Source of the DNA: an uncultured Actinomycetota bacterium
GTDB taxonomy: Bacteria; Actinomycetota; Actinomycetes; Streptosporangiales; Streptosporangiaceae
Length of the DNA stretch: 64,000 bases
Assembly (NCBI GenBank): GCA_963731085.1
Contig: CAVSUF010000019.1
Location: forward strand, 134,382-198,381
Direction: 5' to 3'
Position numbers and translations under genes: made by a program. The notes beneath the pieces are model-generated. The model saw nothing but the letters and a program-made list of their open reading frames with translations. It was not told where the DNA came from and did not search any database. Positions within the stretch are counted from its first letter, which is position 1; the number at the start of each line of letters is the position of its first letter. Below are positions 5,517-61,796 of the stretch, piece after piece.

Positions 5517-7206
5517 CTACCGGGGCCAGTCGACGGTGAGGAGGACGTTGCGGTCGGCCGGGGTGCCCGCGCCCGCGCCGCCCTCGGCGGTGATCAGGTC
5601 GCGGATCTGCCAGTCGTTGGCGGACAGCTCGCGGGACAGCGCCGCGAGCCGGGCCGGGCTGGCGTCGTCGCCCGGCCCGGAGCCGCCCGGCCCGGAGTCG
5701 CCCGGCCCGGATGCCGCCCGGCCCGGAGCCGCCCGGCCGGGCCGCCGCCGTAGCCGGCCGGGGCGGCGCTGTCGATGACCGTGCAGGCGATGGCCAGGCC
5801 GCGGCCGGACGGCGAGCAGCTCGATCAGCCGGGCCTGCTGCGGCCAGTCGATGTGCGAGGCGGTCGTCACCTGCCAGAAGCCGGCTGGCCCGGAGCCATT
5901 CGTTATGGCCGTGATCTTGTGTTCGTGGGTGTGGCCGTTGACCCAGGCGACCACGCACGGATGGGCGAGCAGGACCTCGCGAAGCTCGGCGGCCAGGATC
6001 CGGCGGCCGGCGCCGGGCGGGCGGTTGCCGTTGACCAGGGTCTCCAGCGGGTGGTGGCTGAACAGCACCACCGGGCGGCCCGCGGCGGCGGCCAGCTCGG
6101 CCTCCAGCCAGGCCAGCTGGGCCGCGTCGAGGGAGCCCTGCCAGCCGCCGTGCTCGTTGACGGTGTCCAGGGCGATGCACCGGACGGCGGCGTGCGGCGG
6201 GGCCCCGCCCGGGCCGGGCCGTCGAAGGCGTAGTACGCGGTGCCCTCGTCGGCGTTGCGCCGGGAGAAGCCGTGCCCGGCCGGGGTGCCCGGGGAGCGGA
6301 AGTGCTCGCGGACGTAGTCCGGCCCGGCGGACCGGGGCACGGGCCGGGATCCGGGGTGACCGCCAGCGTGGTGCCCGCCTGAAGCTCCAGCAGCGCGTCC
6401 GGCTCGGAACGCTCGAACCGGGCGGCCAGCTCGGCCAGGTCCAGGCCGCGGGGCGGGGTGACGACCTTGAGCCCGCCGACGCCGACGTCGCCCAGCCAGC
6501 CCTCCGGCGGCACCGTGCCCTGCAGCATGTTGTCGTGGTTGCCGTGCACGGCGTACCAGGGCAGCCCCAGCCCCGCCGCCCGGAACGGGCGCCGCACGGC
6601 GTCCAGCGCGCCCGGCACCTGCGGGAAGCCGAACGCGGTCTTGGGGAGGTCCGGCGACCGGGCCCGGGTGCCAGTACCGCTCGTCGGCCACCTCCGGGCC
6701 GGACACGCCCTCGTAGCGGTCGGTGTCGCCGGAGTCGGGCCTGACCTCGCCGCCGTCCAGCAGGTCGATGACCGCGCGCAGCTCGTTGCGCTGGCAGTTG
6801 TCGGTGGCGTCGCCGGTGATCACGGCGAAGTCCACCGGCGCCCCGGACACCGGGCCGGCCGGGTGCTGGCGCACCGCCCGGCGACATCGCCTCGGCGACC
6901 TGGAAGGTGAACAGCTCCTGCGCCCGGTAGGTGCCGATGATCCCGACCTCGGCCCGCAGCGGGGAGTCCGGGTCCGAGCAGCGGTCCAGCAGCTCGACCC
7001 GGGCCGGGGACTGGTGGTCCATGATGTGGGTGTCGGACAGCTGGGCGATGACCAGCAGCGGCCGGGCCGCGCGGCCCGCCGCCGGGCAGGCCGGGGCCGC
7101 CCAGCTCGTCCCGGGCGACGTGCTGCTCGCCGTCGGCCGGGACGAGCCTGCGGTAGCCGCCGGCGCCGGGCTCGCCCGGCACCAGCCGCCGCCGCGCGGT
7201 GCTCAA
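5517..7206 (-). pseudogene. metallophosphoesterase (TIGR03767-like), at least four frameshifts
   Basis: Fragments lie in four frames: STARRRLVPGEPGAGGYRRLVPADGEQHVARDEL; LSDTHIMDHQSPARVELLDRCSDPDSPL; VDFAVITGDATDNCQRNELRAVIDLLDGGEVRPDSGDTDRYEGV; LPWYAVHGNHDNMLQGTVPP; and LDTVNEHGGWQGSLDAAQLAWLEAELAAAAGRPVVLFSHHPLETL...WVNGHTHEHKI. These carry the calcineurin-like motifs D-x-H, GD, GNHD, GHTH. A TTG start at 7206 sits 5 nt after a GAGGA RBS, directly downstream of the ABC ATPase stop. Confidence 0.75.
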
Positions 7207-49496: not shown

Positions 49497-50171
49497 GTGA
49501 TCGCCGTCGACGGCCCGGCCGGCTCGGGCAAGTCCTCGGCCGCCCGCGGCGCGGCCCGCGCGCTGCGCCTGCGCTACCTCGACACCGGGGCCATGTACCG
49601 GGCGCTGACCTGGTGGCTGCTGGCCAGGGCACGGACACCGGCCGACCAGGCCGCGGTGCTGCGCGACTTCGGCGGCGCGGTGATCGAGATCGGCACCGAT
49701 CCGGCGGCCCCGCGGATCAGCGTGGCCGGCCAGGACGTGGCCGGCCCGATCCGGACCCGGCAGGTGTCCAACACGGTCAGCGCCGTGGCCGGCCTGCCGC
49801 CGGTCCGCGAGTACCTGATCCGCGCAGCAGCGGGACATCATCGCCGCCGCCGCCGCGGCGGCGCCGGGCATCGTGGCCGAGGGCCGCGACATCGGCACCG
49901 TGGTCGCTCCGGAGGCGCCAGGTCAAGGTGTTCCTGACCGCCAGCGAGACGATCCGGGCGCAGCGCCGGCGCCGCCGACCTGGCCGCCGACCCGGCCGCC
50001 ACCGCCGAGCTGACCCGCCAGGAGCAGGCCCGCCGGGACCGCCGCGACGCGCCGCAGATGGCCCGGGCCGCCGACGCGGTCGAGATCGACACGACCGCGC
50101 TGGGCCTGGAGCAGGTCATCGCCGAGATCGTCGGGCTGGCCCGGAGCAGGCGCCCGGTGCAGCATGGCTAG
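49497..50171 (+). pseudogene. cmk: cytidylate kinase, about three frameshifts
   Basis: GTG 49497. [40 protein letters not shown]...[18 protein letters not shown], then [30 protein letters not shown] and [20 protein letters not shown] in other frames. The stop overlaps the der start. Confidence 0.88.
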
Positions 50172-51584
50172 CGGCCAGCCGGAGGTCAGCGGCCCGGAGG
50201 CGAGCGACAGCCCGGCCGCCGCGGCCGTCCCCGTGCTGGCCGTCGTGGGCCGTCCCAACGTCGGCAAGTCGACTCTGGTGAACCGGATCCTGGGCAGCCG
50301 CCAGGCCGTCGTCGAGGACACCCCCGGCGTGACCCGGGACCGGGTCACCTACGACGCCACCTGGCGCGGCCGGGCGTTCACGCTGGTGGACACCGGCGGC
50401 TGGGACCCCGAGGCGGAGGGCAGCGTCAGCCTGGCCGCCCGGGTCGCGGCCCAGGCCCGGGTGGCGGTCGACGCCGCCGACGCGGTGCTGTTCGTGGTCG
50501 ACGCGGTGGTCGGCATCACCGACGCCGACGCGGCGGTGGCGGCCGTCCTGCGCCGGTCCCGCAAGCCGGTCGTGGTGGCGGCCAACAAGGTCGACGACGC
50601 GCCGGGCGAGTCCGACGTCGGCTCGCTGTGGGCGCTCGGCCTGGGCGAGCCGCTTTCGGTCAGCGCCCTGCACGGCCGCGGCAGCGGCGACCTGCTGGAC
50701 GCGGTGCTGGACGCGCTGCCGCAGGCGCCGGGGGAGCGCTACGACGTGTCCGGCGGGCCGCGCCGCGTGGCCCTCATCGGCCGGCCCAACGTCGGCAAGT
50801 CCAGCCTGCTCAACCGGCTGGCCGGGCAGGAGCGGGTGCTGGTCGACCCGGTGGCCGGCACCACCCGCGACCCGGTCGACGAGCTGATCGAGCTAGGCGG
50901 CAGGACCTGGCGCTTTGTCGACACGGCGGGGATCCGGCGGCGGATGCGCGAGACCCAGGGCGCGGACTACTTCGCCGCGCTGCGCACCGAGCGCGCGCTG
51001 GAGCGGGCCGAGGTGGCGGTCGTGCTGGTCGACGCCAGCGAGCCGCTGGCCGAGCAGGACCTGCGCATCATCTCCATGGTCATCGACGCGGGCCGGGCGC
51101 TGGTCATCGCCTACAACAAGTGGGACCTGGTGGACGAGGACCGACGCCACTTCCTGGACAAGGAGATCGACCGCCAGCTCCACACGGCGCGCTGGGCCCC
51201 GCCGGGTCAACGTCTCGGCCGCTACCGGCTGGCACGTGGACCGGCTGGTCCCGGCGCTGGAGACAGCGCTGGAGGGCTGGGAGACCCGGGTGCCGACCGG
51301 GAGGCTCAACGCCTGGCTGACCGCGCTGCTGGCGGCGACGCCGCCGCCGGTGCGGGGCGGGAAGCAGCCCAAGGTCATGTTCGCCACCCAGGCCGGGGTC
51401 CGGCCCCCGCACTTCGTGCTGTTCACCACGGGATTCCTGCAGGCCGGCTGACCGGCGGTTCGTGGAGCGCCGGCTGCGTGAGGAGTTCGGCTTCGCGGGC
51501 ACCCCGGTGCACGTCACCATGCGGATGCGGGAGAAGAAGCCGGGCGGTGGCAGCCGCCCGGCTCGGGGCGCGCGGCGTAGCTAG
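50164..51584 (+). pseudogene. der: ribosome biogenesis GTPase Der (EngA), two frameshifts in the KH-like C-terminal domain
   Basis: Two G domains are present: [16 protein letters not shown]...DTPGVTRDR...DTGG...NKVD and [16 protein letters not shown]...VAGTTRDP...DTAGIRRR...NKWDL. The C-terminal segments [38 protein letters not shown]...[24 protein letters not shown] and [29 protein letters not shown] are in shifted frames. Stop at 51582-51584. Confidence 0.92.
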
Positions 51585-51595
51585 TCCCGTGCCCG

Positions 51596-52102
51596 CTAGC
51601 CCGTCCCCAGGCTGAACCAGACCATCGTGCCGTTCGCGCCGCACTCGTAGCCCCACCGGTCGGCCAGCGCCTCGACCAGGAACAGCCCGTGGCCGTCGCA
51701 GGTGTACACGTCGTCCTTGACCACGGGCGTATCGCCCGCCGAGCCGCCGTCGGTGACCTCGACCCGGAGGCCGCCCGCCACCGCCAGCACCACCACGCTG
51801 ACCGCCCCGCCCGGCCGCCCGGAGCGGCTGTGCCGGACGGCGTTGGTCACCAGCTCGGACGTCAGCAGCACCGCGTTTTCCAGCATGCCCGTATCTGGCT
51901 GGCCCGTATCTGGCTGGCCCGCGTCCGATACCAGGTGGCCGCCGGCATCCGGCGGCCCGCCGGTGCGTAAGTCGCGCAGTACGTGCGCGACGAATGCACG
52001 TGCTACCCGCACGTGCTCGCCGCGGCCGGGAATGGCGATCCGGCCGAGGACAGCAGCCCCGGCCTCTCCGTTCCCGTTAAGGTCTTGAGATTTCTGACCC
52101 AT
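51596..52102 (-). CDS. ATP-binding protein, SpoIIAB/RsbW-like anti-sigma factor kinase (HATPase_c_2)
   Basis: ATG 52102. [17 protein letters not shown]...[45 protein letters not shown]...[16 protein letters not shown]. It is divergent from an XRE/DUF5753 gene, as in whiJ/abaA-type clusters. Confidence 0.8.
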
Positions 52103-55176: not shown

Positions 55177-56123
55177 ATGCGCTACAGGCCGCTGGGCAAC
55201 TCCGGGCTGGTCGTGTCCGTCGTCGGGCTCGGCTGCAACAACTTCGGCCGCCGCCTGGACGTCGCGGCCACCCGCGCGGTCGTGGACGCGGGGCTCGAGG
55301 CCGGGATCACGCTGCTCGACACCGCGGAGACCTACGGCGGCTCGGGGCGCTCCGAGGAGATCCTGGGCGAGGTGCTGGCGGGCCGCCGGGACCAGGTCGT
55401 GCTGGCCACCAAGTTCGGGCACTACGCGGCGGACATGGGCTACGGCCCGGCCGCCGGGGCCAGGGGCGGCCGCGGCCTACATCCGGCGCGCGGTGGAGAA
55501 CTCGCTGCGCCGGCTGCGCACCGACTACATCGACCTGTACCAGATCCACACCCCCGACCCGCCGGACGCCCGTCGAGGAGACCCTGGCCGCCCTGGCGAG
55601 CTGGTAGCCGAGGGCAAGGTCCGCTACATCGGCAACTCCAACTACCCCGGCTGGCAGATCGCCGAGGCCGCCGCCGCGGCCCGCGCGCTGGGCGTCCCGC
55701 CGTTCATCTCGGCCCAGAACCACTGGTCCCTGCTGGAGCGCGCCGCCGAGGCCGAGGTGGTACCCGCCGCGATCCACTTCGGCCTGGGCGTCCTGCCGTA
55801 CTTCCCGCTGGCCAACGGCCTGCTCACCGGGCAAGATCCGGCGCGGCCAGGAGGCCCGCGAGGGCACCCGGCTGTACCAGCGCGAGGGCTACGTCACGGA
55901 GGAGAAGCTGGACCAGGTCGAGGCGCTGGCCCTGTGGGGGCAGCAGCGCGACAAGTCGGTGCTGGAGGTGGCCATCGCCGCGCTGGCCGCGCGGCCGGGC
56001 TGCGGCTCCGTCATCGCCGGCGCGACCTCGGCCGAGCAGGTCCAGGCCAACGCCGCGGCCGCCGACTGGGCGCCCGAGGCCGACGACCTGGCCGAGATCG
56101 ACAAGATCATGCCCCGCTCCTGA
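55177..56123 (+). pseudogene. aldo/keto reductase, at least four frameshifts
   Basis: MRYRPLGNSGLVVSVVGLGCNNFG...LLDTAETYGGSGRSEEILGEVLAGRRDQVVLATKFG; YIRRAVENSLRRLRTDYIDLYQIHTPDP; LVAEGKVRYIGNSNYPGWQIAEA...ISAQNHWSLLER...GVLPYFPLANGLLTG; and the tail VIAGATSAEQVQANAAAADW. Stop at 56121-56123. Confidence 0.85.
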
Positions 56124-56183
56124 CCGGCGCCGGACCAGCAACCCGAGAATAAGGAGAAACGACGGCGCAACCGCGGGCCCGGT

Positions 56184-56998
56184 TCACGAGCCGGACTGCG
56201 CCGCCGGAACAGGGCCGCGATGGCGCTGCCGAACCGGGCCGAGTACGACACGCTCGGGGTGTCGCCGCCGTGCTCGTAGCCGCCGATCACGCCGATAACC
56301 TGGCCCGCCCCGGTGGCCCCGCTGACGTGCGCCAGGAACGGGCCGCCGCTCGTGCCGTTGGTGTAGTCGGTGCAGAAGAACACCATCTGCCGCAGGTGGA
56401 ACCGGTCGAACGGCGCGGGCCGGCGCGTCACAGAACACCGGCAGCTCGGCGCCGTCGGGATAGCCCACGACGCGGACCTGCTCCGGCAGGCGGCTGCGGG
56501 TGGCCAGCGTCTCGCCGCCGGTGTACCGCTGGATGCGGCGGCCGCGCTCGCCCGCCGACCAGGAACGCCACGTCATCGTCGGGGTCCTGGTGCGCCTGCC
56601 AGGCCCGGTCGGTATAGGCGGCGCGGATGACCCAGCGGCCGTAGGGATAGGTCCCGTCGTGGTAGCCGGGCGCGAACATCAGCCCGGACAGGCTCTTGCC
56701 CAGCAGGCAGTGGGCCGCGGTGACGACCAGGTTCTGGTGCCTTGCTGCGGAGCACGCTGGCCGTGCAGAAGTGCGTCAGCCGGCCGTTCTCGCGGTAGAA
56801 CAGCGCGCCGACCGCGGGCGTCCCGCTGAACACGTTGGCGTCCGCCACGTTCAGCTGCGCGGCCAGGGCCACCGGGTCGCCGGCGGCGGGCTCCATCACG
56901 AGCAGTCCGGCCGCCACGATCAGGGCGAAGGACGCGGCGGCCGCCGCGTGCCAGGCCCATCCGCTCTGCGGCCCGCTCCCGGCTGATCTCCGCATCAC
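56184..56998 (-). pseudogene. secreted trypsin-like (S1 family) serine protease, at least four frameshifts; 3' end uncertain
   Basis: The N-terminal anchor is WAWHAAAAASFALIVAAGLLV. The His motif is NLVVTAAHCLLG, the Asp region is DPDDDVAFLV, and the Ser motif is DYTNGTSGGPFL...VIGVIGGYEHGG. The fragments lie in ORFs 56573..57583, 56428..56679, 56184..56576 and 55889..56431. Confidence 0.7.
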
Positions 56999-57372
56999 GC
57001 GATCACCCGCACGGCATGCGGCCACATCCCCGGTCTGGCCCCTTCCTCCGGCGCGGGCGCGCGCCAGGCATATGGCTGGCCGCGGCGCGGCGGCTTTGCC
57101 ATCAGCAAACCCGATTCGGACCTGCCCTTTATGACCGTGTGCCTGAGGATAACAAGCAGTTTTCGGGCAGCGCCAGATCGTTACCCCAGACCGGCCAACG
57201 GTAATCCGCGCAGCCTCCCGGCGGGCGGATCCTCGCCCATCTCCGGACCATCCGCCGGCCGTACGCCGCCGCTGGTCACATTCCGGGGGGCTGCGCATTG
57301 CACGGCAGTAATCCGCGAGTAAATTACGGGTAGGGGCCAGAACGTCACGGCGAGCGATCACGGGAGCGGCGG

Positions 57373-58663
57373 GTGAATGCAGCGGCTGAGGGTGCCGCGC
57401 CGGCGCCTCCAGTCCCCGTGACGTCGGCCCCCGTGACGTTCCGCAGCGTCTTCGCCGTCGGCGAGTTCCGCGACCATCTGGCTGGCCCAGCTGCTGTCCG
57501 TCGCGGGCGACCAGTTGGCCCGGGTCGCGATGACCGTACTGGTCTACGACCAGACCCGGTCGGCGCTTCTGGTCGGCGGTCACCTACGCGGTCACCCTGG
57601 TGCCGTGGGTCTTCGGCGGCCTGGCCCTGTCCGGCCTGGCCGACCGCCTAGCCCCGGCGCCAGCTCATGGTCGGCTGCGACCTGGCCCGGATGGTCCTGA
57701 CCGGCGTGATGGCGCTGCTCAGCTTCCAGGTCGGGGGCCTGGGCCCGGCTGCGTGTCCTGGTCGTCCTGCTGTTCGCGGTCACCTTGCTGGACTCGCCGT
57801 TCAAGGCGGCCCGCTCGGCCCTGCTGCCCGACATGCTGACCGGCGAGCTGTACGCGCTCGGCGTGGCGGCGTCAGCCAGACCGCCCTGCAGACCGGCATG
57901 GTGGCGGGCTTCGCGCTCGGCGGGGTCATCGTGGCGGCCTGCACGCGGGCGGGCGCGCTCAGCCTGGACTCCGCGACGTTCGCGGCGTCGGCACTGCTGC
58001 TCCAGCTCGGCGTGCGGCGGCGCCCGGCCGCGGCGCGGCCGGGGCTCGGGCGGCTCCGCGCTGGCCGAGATGGCGGCCGGGGTGCGGCTGGTGTTCGGCC
58101 GCGCCCGGCTGCGCACGCTGGTCCTGTTCGGCTGGCTGGTGGCGTTCTACATCGTGCCCATGGGCCTGGCGGCACCGCTACGCGGCCGGCCTGCACGCCC
58201 GGCTGCCGCTGGCCGTGACCACCGGCCTGGTCTTCGCGGCCGGCCCGCTCGGCACCATGGTCGGCGCGATCGCGTTCAGCCGGCTGGTCCCGGCGCCCCG
58301 GCGGACAGGCCTGGCTCGGCCCGCTGGCCGTACTGTCGTGCGGCAGCCTGGTCCTGCTGGCGCTCCGGCTCGACCTGGCGCTGACCCTGGCCGTGCTGGC
58401 CCTGTCTCGGCGCGGGCGCGGCCTACCAGCTCGCCGCCAACGCCGCGTTCGTGGCCGAGGTCCCGCCGGAGCGCCGCGGGCAGGCCTTCGGGCTCGCCAA
58501 CGGCGGCATGCAGGTATTCCAGGGCCTGTGGATCGTGCGGCCGGCGCCATCGCCGCCCACGCCCTGTCGCCCGGCATCGTCATCGCGGCTCAGCGGCGGC
58601 ATCGGGGCAGCGCTCGCTGCCGCTCTGGCGCTGGTCCGCCACCGGGAAGTGCTGCGGGCATAA
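57373..58663 (+). pseudogene. MFS transporter (MFS_3/EntS-like), at least seven frameshifts
   Basis: FRSVFAVGEFR; WLAQLLSVAGDQLARVAMTVLVYDQTRSALL; VTLVPWVFGGLALSGLADRL; LMVGCDLARMVLTGVMALL; LLDSPFKAARSALLPDMLTGELYALG; QTALQTGMVAGFALGGVIVA; LVAFYIVPMGLAAP; VTTGLVFAAGPLGTMVGAIAFSRL; YQLAANAAFVAEVPPERRGQAFGLANGGMQVFQGLWI. Stop at 58661-58663. Confidence 0.8.
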
Positions 58664-58696
58664 CCGCCTGCCAGCCAGGACCGGGTCATGGCTATG

Positions 58697-58717
58697 TCAG
58701 GCCCACTCGTTGCGCAT
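58697..58717 (-). CDS. mini-ORF 1, MRNEWA (hypothetical hexapeptide)
   Basis: AAGGAGGAAcgccATGCGCAACGAGTGGGCCTGA. The SD sits 6 nt from the ATG. Confidence 0.35.
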   Translation of the reverse strand: MRNEWA

Positions 58718-58773
58718 GGCGTTCCTCCTTCGGGGTGGCGGCGGGGTGGGGTGGGTGGCCGGCGCGGTGCGGT

Positions 58774-58794
58774 TCAGGCCCACTCGTTGCGCAT
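58774..58794 (-). CDS. mini-ORF 2, MRNEWA
   Basis: GGAAGGAGcagcgccATGCGCAACGAGTGGGCCTGA. Confidence 0.35.
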   Translation of the reverse strand: MRNEWA

Positions 58795-58841
58795 GGCGCT
58801 GCTCCTTCCGGGTGCTGGCGTGGTGGCGGGTGCGGTGCGGT

Positions 58842-58862
58842 TCAGGTCCACTCGTTGCGCAT
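58842..58862 (-). CDS. mini-ORF 3, MRNEWT
   Basis: AAAGGAGGAAcgccATGCGCAACGAGTGGACCTGA. Confidence 0.35.
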   Translation of the reverse strand: MRNEWT

Positions 58863-58914
58863 GGCGTTCCTCCTTTCCGGGTGCTGGGCGGGGTGGTGGC
58901 CGGTGGCGTGCGGT

Positions 58915-58935
58915 TCAGGCCCACTCGTTGCGCAT
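58915..58935 (-). CDS. mini-ORF 4, MRNEWA
   Basis: GAAGGAGGAAccgcgATGCGCAACGAGTGGGCCTGA. Confidence 0.35.
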   Translation of the reverse strand: MRNEWA

Positions 58936-59445
58936 CGCGGTTCCTCCTTCGGGGCGTGACCGGCCGGTGCCGGAGTATGGACGAGTCGGTCGAGCAGACT
59001 AAAGTGCATTCAGCTGCGCATGGCTCCGCGGAGGCTGGCGGCAGTGACGCCGCGGGTCTAGGGTGCCGGGTGCGCCGGGTCGCGTTCATTCGCTACGCAT
59101 GAGGCTGTCCTGTCGGTGTGGTGATAGGTGTGACAGTTGGGGCGAGGTCAAGGCCACTTTGCCGGGCCGCCGGGCGGGCTCGGAGACGGCGCGCCGGGCC
59201 GTTACGTGATCGCCTCGGCCCCATGAGCGGCGAGCGATATGTCATACTCTGCCGGTAGCTATCTGTCATGCCCCGCTCCCAGAGAACGGTCCCTGGCCCA
59301 GAATGGATCTGCACCCCTCGTACCAGGGGGTCCTGTGTCAGCCTGCTGCCAGGCTTGACAAGGCGACGCGATTATTGCCACGATGCGCCTTTAGGTCCAT
59401 CCCTTCCGAATCCTGCTCGGCCTGCGTTAGCGCCGTTCTCGCGGA

Positions 59446-60761
59446 GTGCCTATGGCCATCCTCCGACAGGCTGAGCTCGCGCGCCGCCGGTTGCGGACGA
59501 AAACGGCCCAGGTTGCCGGATGGCCCGTCTGGTCGCTGCCCAACCCGCTGCGTGCCTACCTGACCGGGACGATCACCGTCGCGCTCACCCTGACGGCCGT
59601 CGCGATCGCCTGCATGACCTGGCGGCGGGGCCAGCTGCTGAGCTTCGTGGGGCTGCTGGCCTGCGGGATCGTCGCCATCGAGGCGACCCGCGGGGTCCGC
59701 GAGGTGCACGGCACGGTGAATCGGGACCTGCAGTCGGTGTGGTACCTGGCAGCGGCCATCACGCTGCCGCCGGGGTACGCGATGCTGGCGCCGATCCCCA
59801 TGACCGCCTACCGGCTCTGGCGGGTGCGCAGCGGCGTCGCTGTACCGGCGGGTGTTCAGTAACGCCACCCTGTGCCTGGCCTACGGCGCCGCGTCGGTGA
59901 CGTTCCGGCTGATCCCCGCGCACGTGGTCGGGTCCGCGCCGGGCACCGACCTGCACGTGCTGATCTGGACGGCGGCGGTGACCGGGTGCGCGCTGATCGG
60001 CTGGGTGGTCAACAACGGCCTGCTGTTCATCGCGATCCGGATGTCGGACCGGACCACCCGGGTCCGCGGACATGTTCGGCACCCGGGAGGCCATCACCGC
60101 CGACCTGCTGGAGATCAGCCTGGCCGTCTCGCTGACGCTGGTGGTGGCGGTCAACCCGGTGCTCATGGCCCTGGCCCTGCCCTCGGTCGTGCTGTGCCGC
60201 CGTTACCTGATGCGCGCCCAGCAGGTCGCGCAGGTGCGGATCGACGCGGGCACCGGCCTGCTCAACCCGCGGTCCTGGCAGCGGGAGGCGGAGTTCGAGT
60301 TCTTCCGGGCGCTGCGCACCAGCGCCCCGCTGGCCGTCGCGATGGTGGACATCGACGACTTCCGGTCGGTGGAGGAGACGGCCGGCGCGGAGGTGGCGTT
60401 CCAGCTTCGCCGCGACGTCGCCACCATGCTGGCCGAGCAGCTGCGCGAGCAGGACCTGATCGGGATCTTCGGCGGCCAGGAGTTCGCCATCCTGTTCCCT
60501 GGCACCAGCGTGGCCGACGCCCGGCGGATCAGCGAGCGGCTGCGGGACCGGATCGCCGGCGAGTCCATCGCCATCGAGTCGGCGACCCAGGCCGGCTTCG
60601 TGTTCCGGCTGACCGTGTCCATCGGGGTGGCCGTGATGAACGAGACCAGGCGCGCGCTGACCGAGCTGATCGGCGCGGCCGACACGGCCCTCGGGCAGGC
60701 CAAGGGGACCGGCTGGAACAAGGTCTGCATCGCCGCCGAGCCCATCAGCGACGGCACCTGA
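59446..60761 (+). pseudogene. membrane-anchored GGDEF-domain protein with GGQEF variant motif, two frameshifts in the TM region
   Basis: The N-terminal TM segments lie in three frames (ORFs 59446, 59852, 60072). The GGDEF domain reads DAGTGLLNPRSWQREAEFEFFRALRTSAPLAVAMVDIDDFRSVEE...REQDLIGIFGGQEFAILFPGTS...RLTVSIGVAV...LIGAADTALGQAKGTGWNKV. Confidence 0.85.
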
Positions 60762-60829: not shown

Positions 60830-61796
60830 GTGAGAGCAGCGCTGCATGAGAGCCACGGCCCGGCCGCCGATGTCCTGCGGGTCACCGAGGTAGACCGGCC
60901 CGAGCCCGGCCCGGGCCAGGTCCGGGTCCGCATCGAGGCATCCGGGGTCAACCCCACCGACTGGAAGTCCCGGAGCGGGGCCACGGCCCGGCCGATCAGC
61001 GGCTTCCAGATCCCGCACCATGACGGCGCGGGCGTGATCGACGCGGTCGGTCCCGGCGTCGACCCGGCCCGGGCGGGCCAGCGGGTCTGGACCTGGCTGG
61101 CCGCGGCGGGCCAGCCGTGGGGCACCGCGGCGGAGTGGTGCGTGGTCCCGGACGAGCAGGCCGTGACGCTGCCCGACGGGGTGTCGATCGAGCTGGCCGC
61201 CAGCCTCGGGCGTGCCGGCCATGACCGCGCACCGGTGCCTGTTCGCCGACGGCCCGCTGGACGGCGGCCAGCGTGCTGGTCGCCGGCGGCGCCGGCGCGG
61301 TCGGCCACTTCGCCATCGAGCTGGCCAAGCACGCCGGCGCCCGGGTGGCCGCCACGGTCAGCGGCCCGGCCAAGGCCGAGCTGGCCGCCGCGGCCGGCGC
61401 CGACCTGGTGGTGAACTACCGCGATGCCGACGCCGCCGCCCAGCTCGCCTCGTTCGCGCCGGTGGACCGGGTCGTCGAGGTCGCGCTGGGCGCGAACCTG
61501 GAGCTGGACCTGGCCCTGTCCGGCCCGCAGACCCGTATCGTGACCTACGCCGCCGAGGCGCCGACCCGGTGCTGCCGGTCCGGGCCTGCATGACCGCCAA
61601 CATCAGCCTGCGGTTCGTGCTGCTGTACGGGGTGCCCCGGCCGGCCCTGCGCCAGGCCGCCGCCGACATCACCCGGGCGCTGGCCGACGGCGCGCTGACC
61701 GAGCTGCCGGTGACCCGGTTCCCGCTGGCCGAGATCGCCGCCGCGCACGACGCCGTCCAGGCCGGCGCGGTCGGCAAGGTGCTGGTCATCCCGTAG
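60830..61796 (+). pseudogene. NADPH:quinone oxidoreductase / zinc-type alcohol dehydrogenase superfamily, about three frameshifts
   Basis: MRAALHESHGPAADVLRVTEVDRPEPGPGQVRVRIEASGVNPTDWKSRSG; VPAMTAHRCLF; VLVAGGAGAVGHFAIELAKHAGARVAATVSGPAKAELAAAAGADLVVNY; NISLRFVLLY...FPLAEIAAAHDAVQAGAVGKVLV. Confidence 0.85.

Follow-up and report, generated by a model that had tools for sequence, protein, structure and literature searches.

Here, we describe a family of six-codon genes found in a 64,000-nucleotide stretch of DNA from an uncultured Actinomycetota bacterium (contig CAVSUF010000019.1, hereafter referred to as the window). In the window, four tandem mini-open reading frames (mini-ORFs), each with its own Shine-Dalgarno (SD) sequence, lie between a major facilitator superfamily (MFS) gene and a gene that encodes a membrane protein with a GGDEF domain. 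The mini-ORFs are a conserved gene family, not a local oddity, and they are strictly linked to one family of membrane GGDEF proteins. Comparison of the loci shows that the units are conserved as coding units and that the encoded peptide co-evolves with the membrane domain of the partner protein. We propose, with a probability of about 0.6, that the units are leaderless hexapeptide genes, and that their product would be the cognate ligand of a novel polytopic-membrane GGDEF receptor.

The coordinates of the units were read from the minus strand between positions 58400 and 59300 (Table 1). The array occupies positions 58697-58949 of this strand and contains four units, each composed of an SD sequence, a spacer of 5-6 nucleotides (nt) and the sequence ATGCGCAACGAGTGG(GCC/ACC)TGA, which corresponds to the six codons ATG CGC AAC GAG TGG (GCC/ACC) followed by TGA. 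An earlier sequence-only reading of the window had placed four tandem units here, with stops at 58915, 58842, 58774 and 58697 and periods of 73, 68 and 77 base pairs (bp), and our reading of the sequence confirms them. The 15-mer ATGCGCAACGAGTGG is exact in 4/4 copies, as stated there, but the SD of unit 3 is AAGGAGC(AG) and not AAGGAGGAA. The 15-mer has exactly four copies within the window, all on the minus strand and all inside the array. Tandem Repeats Finder reports a period of 73 bp at 58697-58954, with 3.5 copies and a score of 341. The stop of unit 4 is 33 nt away from the stop of the convergent MFS gene.

The family was delimited by searches from both sides of the locus. An exact-pattern scan of 185,579 genomes, one per bacterial or archaeal species, gave 17 matches, of which five are actinobacterial. 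The other 12, all single and in 10/12 cases without an SD-like sequence upstream, are chance matches, while 5/5 actinobacterial matches are preceded by an SD. Among these five loci (loci are hereafter denoted by L numbers), MRNEWH is found in seven copies in L006 and in six in L003, MRNEWQ in three copies in L010, and single units encode MRNEWT in L001 and MRNEWI in L016. Comparison by tblastx showed that all five loci and the window share the gene immediately divergent from the units, the GGDEF gene. Moreover, orthologues retrieved by protein sequence alone are each adjoined by units, which encode V/MRSEWL (four times), MRNEWG, MRNEWT and MRNEWQ (twice).

A metagenome search, for which the query was the membrane domain only and therefore blind to the mini-ORF, returned 80 loci. 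Loci entered the unit scan if they had 100 nt or more of upstream sequence, which was the case for 73; in 64 of these, there are 1-6 units on the strand opposite to the GGDEF gene, the first unit being usually 150-300 nt from the GGDEF start. Four further loci have variants, namely MHRNEWQ (two loci), MRDEYP and one unit truncated at a contig end, and about 68 of the 73 loci carry units once these variants are counted. Across the family, which comprises more than 140 units in about 70 loci, the copy number ranges from 1 to 7 per locus, the orientation is always divergent from the GGDEF gene, and the peptide consensus is M-R-[N/S/G/A/V]-E-W-x-stop. The search of other genomes, proposed as a check with the sequence-only reading, thus finds the unit arrays as a conserved family beside GGDEF orthologues. 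Furthermore, according to a profile search of 1.8 billion cluster representatives, the number of clusters (50% identity) with the full-length architecture is well over 100. The membrane-GGDEF protein has distant homologues that score about 290-380 bits, and 3/4 of the distant members examined keep a divergent SD and mini-ORF in the same frame. These distant mini-ORFs have 7-8 codons and encode MRDIIWT (L109), MRTTGWGG (L110) and MRNSSWL (L111); L110 again has a convergent MFS_3 gene. As they share the frame, a wider rule can be written as M-R-x(2-4)-W-x(1-2)-stop.

The variation among units follows a reading frame. The metagenome loci were scanned with a pattern that required only a start codon, Trp at codon 5 and a stop, and roughly 110 kb of sequence gave roughly 150 matches, compared with about 4 expected by chance. 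Arg2 is present in every match except MTGEWG, and Glu4 in every match. Codons and information content were counted over 139 unique unit contexts, with Glu4 used as a filter. The Arg codon is CGC in 126, CGT in 12 and CGG in 1, and the Glu codon is GAG in 89 and GAA in 50; further synonymous variation is seen as AAC/AAT and AGC/AGT. In 143 units, the start is ATG (122), GTG (17) or TTG (4), and the stop is TGA (97), TAA (30) or TAG (16). Codon 3 (N/S/G/A/V) and codon 6 (eleven residues, T/H/Q/G/L/S/A/W/V/P/I) vary freely, and there are 17 peptide variants. The ORFs have six codons, rarely 7-8, and all other extensions run into stops.

The information content of the 139 contexts is confined to the SD (-12 to -7), a GCC before the start and the 21-nt ORF. 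It is at background one base past the stop, and it also collapses upstream of the SD. The inter-unit spacers are C-rich and drift in sequence and length (60-127 nt). Across orthologous loci, whose comparison had also been suggested beforehand, substitutions respect the ORF and the SD while the spacers drift. Whichever strand of the array in the window is taken, all 100 of its dinucleotide shuffles fold better than the array itself (z = +2.6 and +2.5), which is what an open, well-translated mRNA would be expected to show. Only inconsistent hairpins were found in the 3' flanks of the units, and an Rfam 15 scan of positions 57500-60500 at E <= 10 gave two sub-threshold chance matches only, both outside the array. 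The suggestion that the conservation is that of a translated unit and not of a plain DNA repeat is borne out by the confinement of information to the SD and ORF and by the start, synonymous and stop variation. These patterns strongly support the units as real, translated six-codon genes.

The peptide varies together with the membrane domain of the partner protein. Residues of this domain are numbered as in P0001, and a neighbour-joining tree of the domain was used. The peptide types are clade-specific on this tree, but they switch repeatedly. In 76 loci, each column of the alignment was compared with peptide residue 3. Residue 188, the second Asn of a near-invariant transmembrane helix motif A-W-x-I-N-N, is Asn in 52/52 loci with peptide Asn3 and in 0/24 loci with another residue 3. 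The other residue-3/188 pairs are Ser/His, Gly/Asp, Ala with Asp, His or Cys, and Val with Cys or Ala. The rule holds in nested lineages: L098 and L021/L022/L041 are Asn/Asn among His, Asp, Cys and Ala clades, and L068, which is Ala/Cys, is nested among Asn clades and still keeps it. The window has Asn3 and Asn at the equivalent of residue 188 (WVVNN), whereas its nearest relative among the fetched loci, L092 (81% nucleotide identity), has Ala3 and His188 (MRAEWT, IVNH), so that both positions differ. Parsimony requires at least four independent N/non-N switches in each character, all of which coincide, and 0/200,000 random placements of four changes reproduce the residue-3/188 match. No other column predicts the residue-3 trait perfectly, the next best reaching 94.7%.

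When changes were assigned to branches, 6/7 residue-188 changes fell on the 8/150 branches that have a residue-3 change. The co-change of residues 3 and 188 has p = 1.35e-8 (Bonferroni 3.4e-6), and the next column 1.6e-4, in tests that are inflated by branch-rate heterogeneity. For peptide residue 6, the strongest co-change is with position 88 (p = 6e-7; 1.6e-4 after Bonferroni correction), followed in rank by positions 90, 89 and 86, all four in the loop directly before the invariant Arg91-Asp92. In control co-change tests, the best p values were 1e-3 for the catalytic domain, 6e-3 for the MFS protein and 1e-2 for the alcohol dehydrogenase (ADH). Without mutual recognition of the peptide and the membrane domain, it would be difficult to account for the covariation of residue 3 with residue 188 and of residue 6 with the loop.

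Based on these observations, a model of the module can be proposed. Each unit would be a gene of its own, six codons long and efficiently translated, that has a strong SD, a spacing of 5-7 nt and an unstructured C-rich spacer. The product would be (f)Met-Arg-x-Glu-Trp-x, made without a leader or a precursor, and its dosage would be set by tandem amplification of the whole SD and ORF unit (1-7 copies). The target of the hexapeptide would be the membrane domain of the GGDEF protein on the divergent side, for which it would serve as cognate ligand or which it would modulate directly. In the peptide, Arg2, Glu4 and Trp5 would form an invariant recognition core, while residues 3 and 6 would tune specificity; residue 3 would be read by receptor residue 188 in the transmembrane W-x-I-N-N helix, and the C-terminal residue by the loop just before Arg91-Asp92. 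The locus would thus be a self-contained peptide-receptor module whose output may be signalling of the cyclic di-GMP (c-di-GMP) type. Of the explanations offered in the sequence-only reading, multi-copy genes for a leaderless hexapeptide signal are the one that we favour, as the variable residues co-vary with the membrane domain of the partner.

The partner protein has about 437 amino acids and consists of a polytopic membrane domain (approximately residues 1-260) followed by a GGDEF domain. Its only match is to GGDEF (PF00990/TIGR00254, E = 4e-32). A full-length structure model retrieves GGDEF structures only, and the fold of the GGDEF domain matches solved diguanylate cyclases. The charged and aromatic residues that are invariant in the membrane domain are E77, R91, D92, W97, Y98, R124, R132, N137, W184, N187, D217 and E220. 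The positive-inside rule, applied by eye to the model helices, tentatively places loop 80-93 outside the membrane. The signature is GGEEF or GGDEF in about 40% of the family, while in others another residue often stands in place of the second Gly (GSEEF, GAEEF, GADEF, GCDEF, GNEEF or GREEF). The clade of the window has GGQEF (window positions 60429-60470; also in L092). The RxxD inhibitory site is found in only about a third of the members. Some lineages may have lost cyclase activity.

An MFS gene of the EntS/Mef/DHA efflux family is present in about two thirds of the loci, and in these it always lies right next to the units in convergent orientation; in the others, its place is occupied by SCO1-CtaG genes or by the protease gene. 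The MFS gene is not universal while the GGDEF gene is always there, and the constant partner of the units is therefore the GGDEF protein. Multi-copy arrays are found in 27/32 MFS-positive and in 5/15 MFS-negative loci (p = 0.0016 by Fisher's test, without correction for phylogeny), an association that suggests export of the peptide and sensing from outside. A strict rule that arrays occur only with an MFS gene was rejected: L085 (six copies) and L069 (three) have no MFS gene, and several MFS-positive loci are single-copy. Where it is present, the adjacent EntS/Mef-type MFS protein would probably export the peptide and so turn it into a signal of autocrine or quorum type. The fullest form of this model is a new cell-cell or autocrine system of soil Actinomycetota, in which tandem six-codon genes encode an unprocessed (formyl-)hexapeptide pheromone that is exported by the MFS protein and sensed by the membrane-GGDEF protein, with pherotypes set by residues 3 and 6. 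We put this version forward tentatively, as a possibility that is more doubtful than true.

Several points weigh against the ligand-receptor interpretation. Regarding the receptor, the N-terminal membrane domain has no sequence match in Pfam, NCBIfam or the PDB and belongs to no recognised sensor family; its model has a predicted local distance difference test score (pLDDT) of 64, and its weak matches to the energy-coupling factor S-components ThiT and RibU (E 0.2-0.4) are non-significant. As the signature is often non-canonical, some lineages may have an output other than cyclase activity. The side of sensing is a further point, since action of the peptide inside the cell is equally possible. 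Regarding export, the MFS gene is missing from about a third of the loci, and covariation between the peptide and the MFS protein was not seen in 24 tips, a comparison of low power. Regarding the covariation with the membrane domain, the independent switches are few (4-8 effective), and L037 is an exception that combines MRDEYP with Asn188, with an upstream flank of 268 nt only. The covariation indicates functional coupling, not binding, and a third partner could mediate it. Regarding the mini-ORFs, a consensus promoter scan of L025 gave no candidate on their strand. Finally, all carriers are uncultured Actinomycetota of soil or peat; no cultured carrier was found, and the named records are metagenome-assembled genomes labelled Streptosporangiaceae or Actinomycetota.

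The region between the units and the GGDEF gene contains a candidate promoter (Table 1), inferred to serve the latter. Its TTGACA is invariant in 55/55 unique orthologous intergenic regions, in an element TTGACA-N17/18-TGn-nACnAT that faces the GGDEF gene, with an extended -10-like TGTGAC(N)AT after the TTGACA. On the complementary strand, the -10 block contains a -10-like hexamer yATnGT that faces the mini-ORFs. The first unit of L025 and that of L065 begin 113-116 nt from the GGDEF start, immediately behind the GGDEF -35, and the promoter of the unit must therefore overlap the GGDEF promoter or 5' untranslated region (UTR). Consensus promoter scans were weak and gave candidates on the mini-ORF strand in L016 (TTGCCA-16-AATGAT) and in the window (59399-59371). 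The GGDEF and mini-ORF transcription units probably share a compact divergent control region. The GGDEF 5' UTR also has a conserved transcribed block, TTAGCTCCTTACC-N4-CGTTAC, with an anti-SD-like CUCCUUA (region 59355-59451). A riboswitch-like 5' UTR was considered and rejected, as RNAalifold predicts no consensus pairs in 22 sequences. The TTAGCTCCTTACC block, being without conserved structure, may therefore be a protein operator or an opposite-strand promoter. An imperfect direct repeat, GACAGATAGCT ... GACATATCGCT, with a spacing of about 24 nt, is located on the minus strand at window positions 59267-59232. It is kept in the clade of the window (L092 and L108 have ACATATCGCTA / GCATATCGCTC) and sits in an extra segment of about 250 nt, specific to this clade, between the GGDEF promoter block and the first unit. 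This repeat could be an operator or the mini-ORF promoter.

This arrangement bears on an explanation that we consider improbable, in which the units are cis-acting translated minigenes. The peptide itself would have no function, and ribosome occupancy or stalling would steer the divergent transcript, and thereby GGDEF expression, through overlapping or bidirectional promoters or antisense 5' ends. What such minigenes sense could be a tRNA (for Trp, Arg or Asn), the activity of release factors or a drug that targets the ribosome. Regulatory ORFs of hexapeptide scale are known elsewhere, such as MsrDL (MYLIFM), the cat86 leader (MVKTD) and the lambda bar minigenes. In addition, the conserved -10 block reads -10-like on both strands, the unit promoter must overlap the GGDEF promoter or 5' UTR region in L025 and L065, and the constant distance from Trp to the stop, kept despite the N-terminal insertion in MHRNEWQ, would suit a motif anchored at the peptidyl-transferase centre as well as a free peptide. 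However, most loci have no co-directional downstream gene, the MFS or CtaG gene being convergent, amplification of the whole SD and ORF to 2-7 copies is not a feature of attenuators, and the GGDEF 5' UTR has no conserved RNA structure. Covariation of residues 3 and 6 that is specific to the membrane domain would be unexpected if the peptide mattered only inside the ribosome. A pure ribosome-loading RNA, which had also been offered as a possibility, was set aside, as it leaves the covariation between peptide and protein unexplained.

A second explanation, to which we give still less credit, treats the hexapeptide as a minimal natural-product precursor that is modified by enzymes encoded elsewhere and exported by the MFS protein, antibiotic- or siderophore-like, with the GGDEF protein merely regulating or sensing it. 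The ultra-short genes bytA and mccA also begin with Met-Arg/Lys, have their own SD and are found in clusters with exporters, multi-copy precursor genes are common in clusters for peptides that are made on ribosomes and modified after translation (RiPPs), and the MFS gene is associated with arrays. Against this, about 90 contexts contain no P450, ThiF/MccB-type, radical SAM or other tailoring gene. Position 3 is never aromatic, as a biaryl link would require, and a C-terminal Asn occurs in 0/17 peptide variants. The one-to-one linkage and the covariation point to sequence recognition; modification of a ligand would be compatible with both.

It is very unlikely that the units are resistance-peptide minigenes, in which translation of short ORFs in cis clears macrolide-type drugs from ribosomes. 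The pentapeptides of Tenson and Mankin reportedly come from laboratory-selected E-peptide and K-peptide minigenes (MRMLT, MRFFV) of 4-6 codons that start with Met-Arg and need high expression. The units resemble such ORFs, and they have strong SDs, unstructured spacers, arrays and an adjacent MFS gene that is distantly Mef-like. However, this explanation accounts neither for the obligatory GGDEF pairing nor for the covariation with the membrane domain, the conserved Arg, Glu and Trp are unlike the hydrophobic consensus, and the MFS protein scores 37.7 bits against a Mef cut-off of 675. Least credible of all is a non-coding DNA repeat or a plus-strand anti-SD-like CCUCC element in the MFS 3' UTR, the alternative raised in the sequence-only reading, or in the GGDEF 5' region: each unit does have CCTCC on the plus strand, and in the window the array does lie between two plus-strand genes, but loci that lack the MFS gene still have the units, oriented to the GGDEF gene as elsewhere, a conserved candidate GGDEF promoter lies between them and the GGDEF gene, substitutions (alternative starts, synonymous codons and alternative stops) follow the minus-strand frame, the folding of both strands is no better than that of shuffles, there is no Rfam match, and the motif is not dispersed, 4/4 exact copies in 64 kb being inside the array.

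Two decayed copies of the unit are located in the window between the array and the GGDEF gene, upstream of the four units (Table 1). In an alignment, the copy at 59100-59086 has as its orthologue the first intact unit in L092 and L108, both of them relatives. Decay by TGG to TGA (Trp to stop) has occurred twice independently, in this copy and in L021/L022 (ATGCGCAACGAATGAGGCTGA; at about 5700-5730 on the minus strand of L021). In L034, a mutation has turned the stop of one copy into CGA. The rare decayed copies detected by a near-unit scan fit a birth-and-death turnover of tandem units.

Table 1 Features of the mini-ORF locus in the window.
Feature	Position	Strand	Description
Unit 1	58915..58949	-	SD AAGGAGG 58949-58943; 5-nt spacer; ORF 58935-58915, ATGCGCAACGAGTGGGCCTGA = MRNEWA
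Unit 2	58842..58876	-	SD AAGGAGG 58875-58869; ORF 58862-58842 = MRNEWT
Unit 3	58774..58807	-	weaker SD AAGGAGC 58807-58801; ORF 58794-58774 = MRNEWA
Unit 4	58697..58730	-	SD AAGGAGG 58730-58724; ORF 58717-58697 = MRNEWA
Decayed proximal unit	59086..59100	-	ATGCGTAGCGAATGA = MRSE-stop; TGG to TGA; SD mutated to AGGAC
Second decayed unit	59010..59021	-	ATGCGCAGCTGA = MRS-stop; indels relative to intact unit
Candidate GGDEF promoter	59355..59384	+	-35 TTGACA 59355-59360; 18-nt spacer ending TGC; -10 CACGAT 59379-59384
Partner gene, membrane GGDEF protein of about 437 amino acids	59452..60761	+	ATG 59452; divergent from units
MFS efflux gene, EntS/Mef/DHA-type	57270..58663	+	convergent; start approximate; frameshifted here
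Trypsin-like serine protease gene	56180..57120	-	approximate limits; frameshifted here; syntenic context

The neighbours of the array in the window are those given in the sequence-only reading, namely a divergent gene with a GGQEF motif, a convergent MFS gene and, beyond it on the minus strand, a trypsin-like protease gene. Across about 90 contexts, the only recurrent neighbours are genes for an aldo-keto reductase (AKR), the trypsin-like protease, the MFS protein, SCO1/CtaG, an ADH and a 91-amino-acid protein. The next gene after the units is convergent (MFS or CtaG) in most loci; where both are missing, the protease gene is next, 440-625 nt away. Where MFS or SCO1-CtaG genes have come to lie between the protease gene and the mini-ORFs, the protease gene keeps its place. 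Several loci (L018 12048-13335; L021 8460-9761; L025 11436-11681) have, at a distance of 2.5-5 kb from the GGDEF gene, a gene for an aminoacyl-tRNA synthetase of class IIb (tRNA-synt_2, Asp/Asn/Lys type). Microcin C targets the aspartyl-tRNA synthetase; the recurrence of the tRNA-synt_2 gene is most likely plain synteny. At the edge of L025 (12749-13317), there is an IS605 OrfB/TnpB (Cas12f-like) gene, which is unrelated to the mini-ORFs.

Between window positions 55177 and 61793, every gene is split by 1-nt indels, yet the proteins are 50-85% identical to intact orthologues. The AKR, trypsin-like protease, GGDEF and zinc-dependent ADH (Zn-ADH) genes are each read in three frames and the MFS gene in at least two. 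The GGDEF gene has 1-nt insertions near 59838 and 60067, and the Zn-ADH gene has indels near 61207, 61268 and 61561. Long intact ORFs are present elsewhere in the window (e.g. 50014-51615). The local 1-nt indels are probably long-read assembly errors rather than signs of pseudogenisation.

The six-codon units are some of the shortest genes known. Genes of 21 nt escape every gene caller, and this family was recognised from sequence evolution alone; to our knowledge, there are almost no functional genes of this length apart from bytA and mccA. The c-di-GMP second messenger governs development in Actinomycetota. If the ligand-receptor interpretation is true, the concentration of a peptide would be wired straight into c-di-GMP signalling, and this would be the first genetically encoded peptide input to such signalling in Actinomycetota. 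The signal would need neither precursor, leader nor processing, with the number of SD and ORF copies setting the dose, and the partner protein would represent a new receptor class in which a novel membrane domain couples a peptide to a GGDEF output. The covarying pairs (3/188 and 6/loop 86-90) lend themselves to a specificity-swap test. As a general method, the promoter-proximal flanks of orphan sensor genes can be scanned for conserved SD and mini-ORF units.

The view that no described element has this architecture is upheld by literature searches for these peptides (MRNEW, RNEWH/RNEWQ/RSEWL etc.) and for small ORFs next to diguanylate cyclases in Actinobacteria, which returned nothing relevant. 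Among known systems, the leader-peptide and minigene regulators (MsrDL, cat86, ErmCL/ErmDL, lambda bar) likewise consist of an SD and an ORF of 2-8 codons, engage the ribosome and are conserved at the peptide level. Such regulators work in cis, either on a downstream gene of the same direction or on pools of tRNA, whereas the units described here are amplified and covary with a protein encoded on the other strand. A leader-peptide attenuator was rejected for want of a downstream gene to regulate, the next one being convergent in most loci. Moreover, the array is less structured than shuffles, and the 3' hairpins are inconsistent.

The published biarylitide precursors encoded by bytA have the sequences MRYYH, MKYWH, MRYWY and MRYVH, with the patterns MxYxH, MxYxW and MxWxY. 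Similar to the mini-ORFs, bytA is an ultra-short (5-codon), leaderless actinobacterial gene that starts with Met-Arg/Lys, has its own ribosome-binding site and is missed by gene callers. It differs in its adjacent cross-linking P450 (BytO) and in the aromatic residues at positions 3 and 5, which are absent from the mini-ORF loci. Furthermore, bytA is single-copy and has no GGDEF partner, while the mini-ORFs are tandem and have one. Membership of the biarylitides was rejected, as there is no P450 in about 90 loci, the peptides have six residues, and position 3 is N/S/G/A/V in all 143 units. The mini-ORF loci also resemble those of microcin C in combining a short Met-Arg gene, of seven codons in the case of microcin C, with an MFS pump. 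The mccA heptapeptide, MRTGNAN, is very highly translated, MccB is an adenylyltransferase, and MccC is the MFS exporter. Microcin C requires the ThiF/E1-like MccB and a C-terminal Asn, and the mini-ORF system has neither. Membership was rejected here as well, with no ThiF-family gene in any annotated context and a C-terminal Asn in none of the 17 variants.

By analogy, the module appears to work most like a peptide pheromone and receptor cassette of Gram-positive bacteria. In the AgrD-AgrC, ComC-ComD, Rgg-SHP, ComR-XIP, PlcR-PapR and AimP-AimR systems, the peptide gene likewise adjoins the receptor gene and often diverges from it. The active signals have 5-8 residues and a dedicated exporter is often present in the locus, which is similar to the situation found here. 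Pherotypes in these systems match variants of peptide and receptor, analogous to the covariation of residue 3 with residue 188 and of residue 6 with the loop, a functional resemblance and not one of membership. However, the pheromones are made from precursors of 20-60 amino acids that have a leader or signal and are processed, whereas here the six-residue ORF is itself the gene, repeated in tandem with its own SD each time. The receptors of those cassettes are histidine kinases (HPK10) or cytosolic RRNPP/TPR regulators, and not a polytopic membrane domain joined to a GGDEF domain; their exporters are ABC transporters or AgrB, and not an MFS pump. As its peptide is neither cut from a precursor nor processed, and its receptor candidate is of neither the RRNPP nor the HPK10 type, the module lies outside the RRNPP and Agr families.

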